Source: a virus. From it: DNA of 64,000 bases. Below, piece after piece: positions 12,690-14,840 of the stretch (its first letter is position 1; each line of letters begins with the position of its first letter). Where the stretch lies: IMG/VR virus record IMGVR_UViG_3300001525_000014, positions 1-64,000 of that record; one strand, given 5' to 3'. The position numbers and the translations under genes were made by a program. Under the pieces are notes generated by a model. That model was not told the origin of the DNA. It saw nothing but the letters and a program-made list of their open reading frames with translations, and made no database searches.

Positions 12690-14840
12690 CCTCTGAGGTA
12701 TGGTAGTAAACATAAGAACCTACCATACTTAACTCAGCTAAGTACATATAGCAGGTCTCATTAGCCTGTGTACGAAAAGAACTTGATCCGAGAATATGTT
12801 AACTCTGTCTTGCAGAGCGAGATTACCCAAAAGGTAGGATGAAATGTATCAAACATTGAAAATGTGTGATATAAGAAGGAGAAGCGTTGTATCAACTCCT
12901 TACTCGAAGCATGAGAACCGTCTGGTGATGTCGTGAGAGTAAAACGCATAAGCCCCAAGAAGGGCATAATGAACCGTATCGGAATTGTATGTGATGATAC
13001 TAAACATACACGAACGTTACACGAGAAACAACTATTTGTGTCCCCAGTAGGTGAACAGAATTGCATACATGGTATGGTGCATGGTGCTGGAAGAACCGAG
13101 GACTCCAAAGCAAATAGTAGTATCAATAGCTGTAGGTAGTGCTTTTACCTGTCCAAAGGTAATATAAGGGCCGAAGTAACGCATCTATACTGTGGGAGTA
13201 ATACCACACAGAGTAAACTAAATGAGTTTGCTGACTATACCAAAACCTTGCCGTTGGATTCGGCATCCTCTCTCACGTCAAGTTGTCGACTTTACGAGCC
13301 CACAACACAAGGGGACCAGCGATGGGGTAGAAGTGTCTGATTGCGACCGCCAGGCTTTGCTCATTTATGCGGTATATAAAAGTAAAACGAGCACAAGGGT
13401 AGGGCAACCACTTAATCGAAGCTTTATTGGAAGTATCGTACGCGGATGAAGGCCGCGGTGAAAGTCTATTTCAACATATATAATAATCATGGTAAGCGAT
13501 GATGAAGAATATGTCTCCCGTGAGGATTAAATAACTTACGAGGTTATAACCGATGACTCCGTTATAGTCAAAGGAAATTGATGGAGAGCTATCCTAGAAT
13601 AAGAAATAGCAAAATAATTAGGTTTGAGTCGATTCGAGATATGTCCACCCAGGACCATTTGACCTCCACTTAATCCAGAGAGAAGCTAAACTAATAGTCT
13701 ATTTGTGTTCTGTTATATAATATTACATAGTCTCTACAGAGTAGTAAGCTGGTATATTATGTATGCGTACAACACACACATTGAGATATAGATTATGAAA
13801 ATTTAGTATATCCAAAATAAACATGTTTAACAAAAACTGATGTCACTCCATAGAGAAAATCGTATGTTGTAGTTACGAGCTTGAGGTGGAGAAATCGAGT
13901 GCCAACCGATGTGCTAAACCATGCTAAAGTGTACTGCGCAACAGTATACGTAAACACAAAGGTTCAAAGCAATACAGGAAATTGATGGGCAGCTTATATT
14001 CAATGTTGTAAAACGACTGTGTATATTATATGTGTATACTGTCTCTATACATATATATTACGTTTATAAGTGGGTGACAAGATGAAATGTATGGGTTGAA
14101 TTCCCGATATTCGTGCACTATAAATAGGAGGTAGTAATACCGGTACAATAAAATTACAAACATCAGCAAAGATGTAAAAAGCCGTAAAGTCTGTGATGGG
14201 TATGATCCTGAGACATTCCGATAACCAACCACTGGGTACATGCCATAAGCCGAGTACTGCAGAGAGGAGCCATTTTGATAAGTTAGGCGCTTTTAAAACT
14301 TATTAGCTGAGGAAATCTGCGTTTAATCGACAACCTGTAGTTTATATTCGTTGTATAGTAAGGGAAATACGACCGAAAATACTACATCTCTTTTTGTTGG
14401 TTTATAATCTCTAATTTCTACGAACACTAGTCCGAAAGGAAATTCTGCCAACGAAGTTAGGGATATTATAGTTAGAAAAATCTATAAGCAGAAGCACTGC
14501 AAAACAAACATACATATGACATTTGATTATGTCAAGACAGCATTCAAAGCTTTAGACGATGGGCCTGGATGAATCCAGTAAATGTTAACTACGTCATATG
14601 TACGTAGTTCCTGTTACAAGCCTATCCTCCAATTGTTGGGATAGGAAGAGTGTAACTAAGTCTGCATTAAAGCGTCTACAATAGTAGAACTGTCTTTGTG
14701 AAAACAATACCAAGCATCGAGTATCTGCGTATCAGCGTTGCTTAATCAATAACAACGGCAAAGGTGTAGCCAAAGAATACACCATAGTTTATAATCATAT
14801 CGTTAGTTAATCAATAACGATATCAAAAAGGATATGATTT
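12690..14840 (+). other. 2.15-kb ORF-poor, structure-rich region (island 3), function unknown
   Basis: Only short, non-protein-like ORFs on either strand. Hairpins at 12698-12728, 14587-14609 and 14621-14645. Internal repeat GGAAATTGATGG at 13573-13584 and 13977-13988. ATGTCCACCC at 13641-13650 also occurs at 8427-8436. Confidence 0.4.
14721..14734 (+). repeat. Fifth copy of the GTATC-N3-GTATCA motif (GTATCTGCGTATCA)
   Basis: Same motif as the 7924-8213 copies. About 110 nt upstream of the ATG at 14844, followed by two AATCAATAAC boxes (14744-14753, 14809-14818). Confidence 0.4.

Follow-up and report, generated by a model that had tools for sequence, protein, structure and literature searches.

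A gene-free region conserved across crAss-like Suoliviridae phages is a candidate gene for a very large structured non-coding RNA

Introduction

Phages are known to encode structured non-coding RNAs, among them the pRNA of phi29, which is transcribed from the early region and is a structural part of the phage machine, and protein binding by a large RNA is exemplified by OLE, which contains a kink-turn-like protein-binding site. GOLLD RNA is encoded by tRNA-carrying phages and prophages, and ROOL is a large structured RNA of phages and prophages without known protein partner or function (PMC12286853). Within the human-gut crAss-virome, no group is larger than the Suoliviridae, or "delta" crAss-like group (PMC7886860). 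Here, we describe a gene-free stretch (12690–14843, ~2.15 kb, hereafter the gap) in 64,000 nucleotides of viral DNA (the window) that belong to a crAss-like phage (Crassvirales, Suoliviridae, Oafivirinae) in which TAG is recoded in late genes. The literature that we searched contains no description of this region in Suoliviridae, and our best reading is that its RNA represents a new class of the GOLLD and ROOL kind, more than twice their size.

Results and Discussion

The gap and its surroundings

ORF scanning confirmed what the initial annotation had proposed, namely that the gap is the largest non-coding stretch of the window: whether translated in the standard code or with read-through of TAG, TGA or TAA, it contains no ORF of at least 150 aa. 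The gap lies between an upstream 138-aa ORF and a downstream 201-aa ORF (ATG at 14844), both in the orientation of the proposed RNA, it adjoins the replication module (DNA polymerase, DnaB and a primase-like protein), and its GC content (0.35–0.45) is similar to that of the flanks. Pfam and PHROG searches with the neighboring proteins returned no matches beyond an ECF sigma factor and the replication proteins. The downstream 201-aa protein has 363 unnamed phage homologues and an AlphaFold model (pLDDT 48) that is unusable, and no partner for the gap RNA was identified among the neighboring proteins examined. Matches to Rfam 15 at gathering thresholds (hammerhead, tmRNA and tRNA) all lie outside the gap, with the nearest tRNA and tmRNA genes 4–7 kb upstream. 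The Infernal/Rfam search that had been suggested, including GOLLD, ROOL, OLE, HEARO, raiA and the group I and II introns, gave no family match in the gap, with just two junk C/D-box matches at E ≤ 10, and at E ≤ 1 the gap was likewise empty at six divergent homologous loci.

All five Suoliviridae subfamilies have, in the same syntenic position, a gene-free gap of ~1.85–2.5 kb. Over 37 lineages, its blocks have 0.6–0.87 identity versus 0.2–0.5 in the flanking coding sequences, and 28% of the gap columns vary versus 52% of the coding ones; the neighboring 511-aa protein has just 23–30% identity between genera. The gap is under stronger purifying selection than the proteins next to it. Of 80 bacterial-genome loci with the exact motif a single one is real, and as this is a 101.5-kb phage-sized contig in a Segatella copri MAG, we rejected a host chromosomal RNA. 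Our best explanation makes the ~1.9-kb RNA a defining trait of the crAss-like Suoliviridae.

Covariation, strand and architecture

Two covariance models were constructed, R1 for the 5′ domain (alignment A4) and R2 for the 3′ core (alignment A9). Plain MAFFT alignment followed by RNAalifold yielded only 10 pairs for the 5′ domain because the variable stems were misaligned, and a hand-annotated seed with a covariance model was used instead. On these alignments, which are fitted to their models, 92.5% of the cells in R1 (12778–12943) are paired versus 38–45% in slid controls, and 95% in R2 (14027–14124) versus 23–65%. In R1, 27 of the 32 pairs have changed on both sides, values that none of 500 shuffles reaches, the shuffle controls being inflated by the relatedness of the sequences. 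The structure of the whole region was predicted and scored on one and the same MAFFT alignment, which favors it over the slid controls, with the following outcome: a strict set of 122 pairs is 93% paired (34–47% slid) with 89 compensatory pairs (37–47 slid), and the full RNAalifold set of 247 pairs in 52 helices (12781–14656) is 89% paired (34–44% slid) with 151 compensatory pairs (78–87 slid). Compensatory changes maintain about 45 helices or more. Compensatory pairs thus exceed those of controls that preserve kinship, the criterion by which we call an RNA structured and non-coding.

Pairing fits the plus strand only, with G·U outnumbering A·C 344:58 in the strict and 630:210 in the full set, and with a consensus folding energy of −276 forward versus −234 in the reverse complement; the single sequence has an unremarkable folding energy (z = −1.1), which is uninformative. 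Conservation and covariation strongly support the large non-coding RNA(s) that had been put forward as one explanation, and we regard it as very probable, judging by these sequence comparisons, that the gap contains a structured RNA gene or genes.

The features of the predicted RNA are collected in Table 1. The stem of the first RNA hairpin occurs in 26 distinct variants among relatives; 16 different combinations are seen in the 4-nt stem, and its three inner pairs are 100% paired. The box preceding it is a candidate start region or promoter element; TAAGTACWTATAG was considered as a promoter motif repeated before other genes and rejected, as it occurs once in the window. The perfect hairpin at the 5′ border is present in the closest relatives only, being absent or different in other genera, and is not called a terminator because it has no T-run.

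Within R1, UGAGAACCGUCUGGUGA is identical in all 26 sequences save C/U at one loop position and one N base, and reads as a 3-nt bulge UGA, a tandem G·A/A·G, a variable pair, CC/GG and a GUYU loop. This matches the kink-turn consensus, which we take to be a helix, a 3-nt bulge, tandem sheared G·A/A·G and a second helix; the pair following the G·A pairs of a kink-turn is usually variable. The element may thus be a kink-turn with a short hairpin as its cap. In domain 2, whose conserved strands comprise ACCGUAUCG, ACACGAG and UAGUGUU, 5 to 7 pairs of each helix have changed on both sides. The 3′ region holds a conserved CAGCAUUCAAAGCUUU..GAUGGGC, and the final covarying helix ends at 14656. Further downstream, the segment 14736–14843 is probably the control region of the downstream operon.

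Table 1. Features of the gap and of the predicted RNA (window coordinates)
Feature	Position	Strand	Remarks
Perfect 9-bp hairpin	12698..12728	+	directly 3′ of the 138-aa ORF stop codon; upstream of conserved element
TAAGTACATATAG box	12739..12751	+	just 5′ of first conserved hairpin; GTAAGTACWTATAG in Oafivirinae
First RNA hairpin	12751..12769	+	stem C12752-G12755/C12765-G12768; conserved 9-nt loop UCUCAUUAG
5′ domain R1	12778..12943	+	helices H1, H2, H2b, H3, H4, H5
H1	12783-84/12842-43 and 12786-89/12837-40	+	R1
H2	12802-06/12814-18	+	R1
H2b	12825-27/12833-35	+	R1
H3	12846-54/12864-72	+	R1; loop UUGAAAA
H4	12878-80/12897-99	+	R1
H5	12909-12/12928-31	+	R1; 3/4 pairs compensatory
Near-invariant UGAGAACCGUCUGGUGA	12912..12928	+	closed by covarying stem H5; putative kink-turn
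Domain 2	12943..13265	+	RNAalifold on alignment A5 and conservation profile
Domain 2 covarying hairpins, first three	12954-56/12962-64; 12986-92/13004-10; 13145-49/13158-62	+	
Domain 2 covarying hairpins, last three	13190-96/13204-11; 13212-18/13226-32; 13249-53/13261-65	+	
Window-specific insertion, ~32 nt	13267..13298	+	inside the RNA; missing from all eight reference relatives; conservation 0.06
Central core	13299..13470	+	near-invariant blocks across genera: GACCGCCAGGCUUUG, GGUAUAUAAAA, AAAGUCU
Helix enclosing GGUAUAUAAAA	13360-70/13382-91	+	central core
CGCG/CGCG stem	13441-44/13454-57	+	central core
More variable stretch	13487..13770	+	covarying hairpins 13487-90/13499-502, 13554-58/13566-70, 13724-31/13756-63
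Hairpin containing the ATGTCCACCC box	G13643-C13646/G13652-C13655	+	read by eye from the alignment
Conserved block stretch	13820..13995	+	AACAUGUUUAAC block; GAGUGCCAACCG at 13896-13908; UGAUGGGCAGC at 13983-13993
Helix	13847-51/13886-90	+	within 13820..13995
Hairpin	13861-65/13873-77	+	conserved GUUGUA loop
Hairpin	13929-35/13943-49	+	all 7 pairs compensatory
3′ core R2	14027..14124	+	covariance model
Hairpin	14033-38/14046-51	+	invariant loop CUGUCUC; 6/6 pairs compensatory
Helix GUGGGUGA/UUCGUGCAC	14069-77/14111-19	+	encloses T-loop-like hairpin
T-loop-like hairpin GGG-UUGAAUU-CCC (GGGTTGAATTCCC)	14093..14105	+	stem covaries: GAG..CUC, GAGG..CCUC
GCCGUAG ... UCGAUAA module	14179..14220	+	helix 14183-92/14211-20; inner hairpin 14198-201/14205-08
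3′ region, lower conservation	14424..14656	+	each helix with 3–6 compensatory pairs
3′ region helices, first three	14424-26/14446-48; 14519-22/14529-32; 14539-41/14549-51	+	
3′ region helices, last three	14561-63/14610-12; 14571-96/14605-09; 14613-18/14651-56	+	
Probable control region of downstream operon	14736..14843	+	outside RNA core
Two TTAATCAATAAC boxes	14736-62; 14801-27	+	operator-like
Sigma-70-like TAGCCA-17-TATAAT	14767-95	+	
Conserved palindrome	14798-14822	+	conservation 0.87 at 14812-31
AAAAAGGA as RBS	before ATG at 14844	+	

The cues from which the initial annotation had started fared differently. All four perfect hairpins exist, the CGCGG/CCGCG one (13441-13445/13453-13457) belonging to the consensus RNA structure and the two 3′ ones (14587-14594/14602-14609, 8 pairs; 14621-14627/14639-14645, 7 pairs) lying where relatives have different, covarying stems. 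The T-loop-like hairpin noted near 14092 was found at 14093–14105 with a covarying stem and with U and A retained at loop positions 1 and 5, and may be a T-loop. The 12-mer repeat GGAAATTGATGG does occur at 13573 and 13978; the first copy is Burzaovirus-specific, conservation across genera being confined to the second (UGAUGGGCAGC), so that the repeat itself carries little meaning. The ATGTCCACCC box is indeed shared between 8427, inside the tmRNA, and 13641, at chance level: at least two matches to the 10-mer appear in 41 of 100 shuffles. In relatives this site is a hairpin of different sequence, with stems GUAC/GUAC and GCCAU/AUGGU in other genera for GUCC/GGAC in the window. A relation of the gap to tmRNA was rejected (best local alignment 24, shuffle mean 22.6, maximum 36), and ARAGORN detected no tRNA- or tmRNA-like element in the gap.

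One molecule or several

We favor the reading, as probable on the basis of sequence, that the gap is a single gene whose product would be a very large structured non-coding RNA of ~1.9 kb with several domains. It would extend from ~12752 to ~14660 on the plus strand, which also carries the early and replication genes on either side. Across subfamilies, some 19 conserved sequence blocks keep their order and the element its total length, with motifs collinear in distant groups. R1 matches are present in all five subfamilies (56 matches in 64 sources, 147.8 bits in the window), and R2 has 29 matches (95 bits in the window), including Loutivirinae at the expected spacing from R1: the R1-to-R2 distance is 1249 nt in the window and 1311 nt in a Loutivirinae genome. 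Every R1 match heads a gap of ~2.0–2.5 kb and no module was found alone elsewhere, which speaks against a tandem cluster of several independent structured RNAs of a few hundred nucleotides each, as do the conserved order and length; scanning also showed neither a terminator-like site nor a conserved promoter-like one within the gap. Such a cluster, possible though clearly the less probable arrangement, would agree with the blocky conservation, interrupted by poorly conserved linkers (13030-13110, 13500-13720, 14130-14170 and 14230-14500), and with the detection of R1 in much more distant relatives than R2, the latter having no match at E ≤ 0.01 in three subfamilies. It would also agree with the finding that no helix spanning more than 100 nt has compensatory changes, so that closure into one molecule is presumptive.

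Other readings of the gap

A very long cis-acting leader, be it the 5′ UTR of the 201-aa gene or the 3′ UTR of the 138-aa gene, is improbable. The RNA is oriented as both neighbors, no promoter or terminator for it was identified between them (sigma-70 and terminator scans stay at background), and the gap ends in a strongly conserved palindrome with an RBS, all of which would suit a leader. Set against this, two kilobases with ~50 helices and many invariant loops are beyond any known bacterial or phage leader, the sigma-70-like promoter and the two operator-like boxes separate the last covarying helix from the downstream gene, and conservation of the RNA far exceeds that of either flanking protein.

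Still less probable is an element acting in DNA, with the hairpins forming at a replication origin, which had been another of the proposed explanations, at a single-strand origin or at a packaging site. The gap is hairpin-rich and borders on the replication module, and G·T pairing is also possible in single-stranded DNA; it has no iterons, however, its sole tandem repeat being a 12-nt unit in 2.2 copies (14810-35), its GC content does not depart from that of the flanks and its cumulative GC skew rises without a turn. No origin described so far resembles this array of fifty strand-specific helices and their conserved loops over 2 kb.

The initial annotation had also considered an ORF-less intron or mobile relic, and we find a self-splicing intron without ORF, or a decayed mobile-element relic, highly improbable. 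Introns are frequent in delta-group crAss-like phages, many of them group I (PMC7886860), and the window has a hammerhead ribozyme elsewhere; yet no Rfam intron model (group II including RF00029 and D1–D4) matches at E ≤ 10, and the flanking ORFs are complete and separate in every genus, the upstream one closing with its own stop and the downstream one having an RBS and ATG of its own. Purifying selection acts on the element, which keeps a single locus throughout the family, and it is therefore not decaying. Large non-coding RNA(s) are thus what endures of the initial interpretation, with the intron or relic and the origin abandoned and two of its cues due to chance or specific to a lineage.

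A protein made by unusual decoding, that is through several reassigned stops, frameshifts or a minus-strand gene, is hardly credible, even if this phage recodes TAG in its late genes and public records of cr7_1 and Bohxovirus annotate minus-strand CDSs of 160–168 aa here, given the evidence that follows. Reading through TAG, TGA or TAA opens no long frame in the gap or in the homologous gaps of the 8 reference relatives (9 genomes, any single-stop reassignment). Variable sites fall evenly over the codon phases of the gap (195/178/183, p = 0.66), in contrast to the downstream CDS (55/39/96, p = 1e-6), and codon periodicity is absent from every 324-nt gap segment and from a 121-aa minus-strand ORF (p = 0.99). 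The four ORFs listed initially (12761..13126, 12933..13139, 13222..13449 and 14026..14241) do exist, the codon-phase test bears out their description as compositionally non-protein-like, and Pfam returned no match to them at E ≤ 1; a conserved coding gene under another code or by homology, named at the outset as what would speak against an RNA, was not found by ORF scans, codon phase or Pfam. Indels between relatives have lengths that are not multiples of three. Minus-strand ORFs were rejected as genes because they shift in position and frame between genomes and lack codon periodicity, with none of at least 80 aa in 8 of 26 genomes; their similarity arises because the underlying DNA is conserved, and the CDSs placed on the gap in public records are probably spurious. 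The gap does not encode protein.

Proposed role and significance

Returning to the single ~1.9-kb RNA, we infer from its sequence a transcript with defined ends and stability, which would be made as one piece together with the early/middle genes. Because of the kink-turn-like element, the T-loop-like hairpin and the many invariant unpaired nucleotides, it would be expected to fold into a compact tertiary structure, and it would then act in trans as RNA. By analogy to GOLLD and ROOL, a scaffold or higher-order RNA or RNA–protein assembly appears the most likely role, a tentative assignment, and host RNA or the translation machinery may be its target, rather than a regulatory leader role. More speculative is the proposal that this single RNA is the largest structured non-coding RNA yet known in a phage and a new RNA machine needed family-wide for infection. 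Such a machine could be a large ribozyme, or an RNA-only or RNA–protein assembly that commandeers translation or RNA processing in the host, and could tie in with an RNA-heavy lifestyle that comprises stop-codon recoding, an own tmRNA, a suppressor-type tRNA and ribozymes.

Suoliviridae are among the commonest phage groups of the human gut, and since 2 kb are kept in every subfamily despite coding-density pressure, a function of importance to these viruses is implied. The R1 and R2 covariance models together provide a sensitive metagenome marker for the family. If the gap is one RNA, it would exceed GOLLD more than twofold in size, approach ribosomal RNA in complexity and be a strong target for cryo-EM and new RNA biochemistry.

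Comparison with known RNAs

The predicted structure has the traits of the large "ornate" phage-borne RNAs, a descriptive class and not a homology family: more than 500 nt, many covarying helices, conserved unpaired nucleotides, phage context and no coding capacity. Like the gap RNA, the phi29 pRNA is phage-encoded, whereas it is ~170 nt long and forms a ring on the portal, and nothing ties the gap RNA to packaging. [quoted passage not shown] OLE is also a large conserved structured RNA, one that scaffolds proteins and has specialized tertiary motifs, but it is chromosomal, found in extremophilic Firmicutes, ~600 nt long and has its partner genes adjacent, whereas the gap RNA has no Rfam match and no recognizable partner gene. 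ROOL shares with the gap RNA that it is large, structured and phage-borne; the gap RNA is about three times longer, has another host range and no Rfam match. GOLLD, finally, resembles the gap RNA in having a large elaborate fold that is defined by covariation, better and less conserved parts, and a function that is not established. It measures little over 800 nt versus ~1.9 kb and is found in Lactobacillales, mycobacterial and aquatic phages, whereas the gap RNA, with no Rfam model match and no adjacent tRNA gene, belongs to crAss-like phages.

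Results and Discussion

The gap between 12690 and 14843 is the largest ORF-free stretch of the window, as the initial annotation had noted, and the four small ORFs, four hairpins, 12-mer repeat and T-loop-like sequence it described are all present where it had placed them. The ATGTCCACCC box common to the gap and the tmRNA island occurs at chance level, and wider tmRNA similarity is absent. The closest records of the window are the crAss-like phages cr7_1 and cr124_1 (Crassvirales, Suoliviridae, Oafivirinae, Burzaovirus), with ~76-78% nucleotide identity over the region. Every Oafivirinae genus fetched has a gene-free gap of 2.0-2.2 kb in the same place, in the order ECF sigma factor, ~130-aa ORF, 460-510-aa protein, 130-190-aa protein, gap and two ~200-aa proteins, a layout common to Loutivirinae (cr4_1, cr53_1), Bearivirinae (cr6_1), Uncouvirinae (cr125_1, cr115_1) and Boorivirinae (cr10_1). 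In IMG/VR contigs with the invariant 17-mer, the + strand likewise lacks ORFs for 2.0-2.5 kb, from 140-250 nt upstream of the 17-mer onwards. The gap is better conserved than the neighbouring genes: across 37 non-redundant lineages identity to the window is 0.6-0.87 in gap blocks versus 0.2-0.5 at flanking CDS ends, the 511-aa upstream protein shows 23-30% identity between genera, and ~19 sequence blocks are collinear, distant groups included. The syntenic neighbours (511, 138, 201 and 195 aa, within 10683-12218 and 14844-16041) have no Pfam or PHROG match; homologues of the 201-aa protein number 363, all of them unnamed phage proteins, and its AlphaFold model could not be used (pLDDT 48).

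The variable stretches that separate the conserved blocks are, by eye, stems whose two sides change together. Covariance model R1 of the 5' domain, built from a 12-sequence seed with seven hand-annotated helices, gives 56 matches in 64 sources (window, 147.8 bits) and, in every other subfamily, scores 28.6-85 bits at the gap's 5' end. R2, covering the 3' core, gives 29 matches, Loutivirinae included at the expected distance from R1. Model-derived alignments are biased towards their own models, and slid controls, with the 3' partner of each pair shifted by 1-3 columns, are the fairer comparison because the sequences are related: 92.5% of cells are paired for R1 versus 38-45% slid, and 95% for R2 versus 23-65%. 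Both sides change at 27 of the 32 pairs of the 5' domain, whose covariation score is 0.586 versus 0.05-0.11 slid, with no shuffle reaching the observed values. The first hairpin has 26 stem variants with its three inner pairs always paired, the CUGUCUC hairpin is compensatory at 6/6 pairs, and the T-loop-like hairpin has a covarying stem.

For the whole region, 26 full-length representatives were aligned with plain MAFFT and folded with RNAalifold, the structure being scored on the alignment used to predict it. With base-pair span limited to 400 nt, 122 pairs in 27 helices are 93% paired versus 34-47% slid, with 89 versus 37-47 compensatory pairs and a G·U to A·C ratio of 344:58; with no span limit (12781-14656), 247 pairs in 52 helices are 89% paired versus 34-44%, with 151 versus 78-87 compensatory pairs and a ratio of 630:210. 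Consensus energy is -276 forward versus -234 for the reverse complement; the folding energy of the single sequence does not stand out (z = -1.1). Conservation, covarying helices and + strand orientation are thus directly observed and support the large-RNA reading of the initial annotation, and we regard one or more structured RNA genes as very likely. We somewhat favour a single RNA of ~1.9 kb over its main rival, several smaller RNAs clustered in tandem; no compensatory changes back the helices that span more than 100 nt.

The apparent start of the RNA is near 12739-12752; covarying helices extend as far as 14656. The invariant UGAGAACCGUCUGGUGA of the 5' domain combines a 3-nt bulge, tandem G·A/A·G, a variable next pair and a short capped helix, a pattern that we take to fit the kink-turn consensus. 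Further landmarks are GACCGCCAGGCUUUG with GGUAUAUAAAAGUAAAA, the GUUGUA hairpin, GAGUGCCAACCG, UGAUGGGCAGC, the CUGUCUC hairpin, GUGGGUGACAAG paired with UUCGUGCAC and enclosing the T-loop-like hairpin, and GCCGUAG...UCGAUAA. Downstream, two TTAATCAATAAC boxes 65 nt apart surround a sigma-70-like TAGCCA-17-TATAAT; the stretch also has a palindrome directly 5' of the RBS, kept in all lineages, and the RBS and ATG. It is the likely control region of the next operon, with its operator and promoter.

Features of the window and CDSs annotated over the RNA in public records (L-numbers denote fetched loci, in locus coordinates)
Feature	Position	Strand	Remarks
RAGATH-1 hammerhead ribozyme	2588-2668		Rfam 75.4 bits; overlaps stop codon of ORF 2194-2589
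tRNA	5963-6043		Rfam 49.6 bits; oversized anticodon loop region (GACTGTATCAG); ARAGORN gives no anticodon
Permuted tmRNA, phage-encoded	8344-8691		Rfam 57.5 bits at 8374-8600; ARAGORN tag peptide GNVNNIVDYTCVA, then stop
ECF-type sigma factor	9643-10200	+	
First hairpin	12751-12769		Loop UCUCAUUAG
5' domain (R1)	12778-12943		Three-way junction (H1, H2, H2b), then three hairpins, the last closing UGAGAACCGUCUGGUGA
Insertion within RNA	13267-13298		~32 nt; no relative has a matching stretch
3' core (R2)	14027-14124		
Likely control region	14736-14843		
DNA polymerase	18650-20608	+	Replication module
DnaB	21177-22103	+	Replication module; further replication genes alongside
cr7_1 gp52	L001 4097-4579	minus	Annotated CDS
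Bohxovirus ECCNAKDA_00150	L003 3293-3799	minus	Annotated CDS
cr125_1 gp066	L276 5097-5258		Annotated CDS
cr10_1 gp22	L278 11464-11649		Annotated CDS
Dulem virus 42	L008 2981-4989		A dozen tiny annotated CDSs

A conserved protein-coding gene was looked for in the gap and not found. No ORF of at least 150 aa exists with the standard code or with any one stop codon reassigned, under no code is one frame open in all eight reference relatives, and the relatives differ by indels whose lengths are not multiples of three. Across nine Burzaovirus-like genomes the three phases have similar numbers of variable sites (195/178/183, p=0.66), with no deviating 324-nt segment; the 121-aa minus-strand ORF gives 25/25/24, and the downstream CDS 55/39/96 (p=1e-6). 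The purine-rich + strand accounts for the recurrence of minus-strand ORFs; these shift in position and frame among genomes, with none of at least 80 aa in 8 of 26. With no Pfam match for the four small ORFs either, a coding gap is rejected. Public records carry 'hypothetical protein' CDSs over the RNA in five cases; these are probably spurious.

An intron, also proposed initially, is rejected: no gene is interrupted, and no Rfam 15 family matches the region, whether in the window (E<=10) or in six divergent homologues (E<=1), in a search that took in group I and II intron, GOLLD, ROOL, OLE, HEARO, RNase P and tmRNA models. The proposed replication origin fails on absent iterons and a GC skew without a turn.

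The Rfam matches in the window (hammerhead, permuted tmRNA, tRNA) all lie outside the gap. The ORF-poor stretch runs on past the hammerhead to 3693 (2588-3693, ~1.1 kb in total) and might hold more RNA elements. The + strand block (1 to 28.8 kb) uses the standard code, while the minus-strand late block (28799-64000) is open only with TAG read-through (ORFs of 1830, 6083, 611, 538 and 1564 aa), the stop-codon recoding already known in crAss-like phages of the delta group; the tRNA is a candidate suppressor for these recoded late genes.

Among the 80 motif-bearing loci listed from 596 Gb of bacterial and archaeal genomes, the only real copy is on the 101.5-kb contig JAJWOH010000001.1 (101,563 bp; R1 129 bits, R2 99 bits). 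It is a crAss-sized phage contig binned in a Segatella copri MAG, a hint at the host of Burzaovirus-like phages. R1 also matches, weakly and over short stretches, contigs from MAGs of Bacteroidaceae, Flavobacteriaceae and Aequorivita (L201 6357-6464, L168 1928-2044, L200 5744-5819; E 0.006-0.009); these could be chance or very distant 5'-domain relatives.

Conclusions

On the reading we prefer, the region would be transcribed as one RNA together with the early/middle genes, fold compactly and act in trans. A scaffold or assembly type of function is a tentative suggestion, by analogy with the phage-borne GOLLD and ROOL RNAs, which are thought to act in this way and whose function is also unknown (PMC12286853). 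A full-text literature search, in which papers outside the searchable library could still describe the region, found no mention of it, including in the crAss comparative-genomics paper, which only notes regions of mixed-polarity short ORFs in some crAss-like genomes (PMC7886860). From this absence we regard the RNA as a 'large ornate phage RNA' of an undescribed class, unrelated in sequence or structure to the known large ornate classes and over twice as large.
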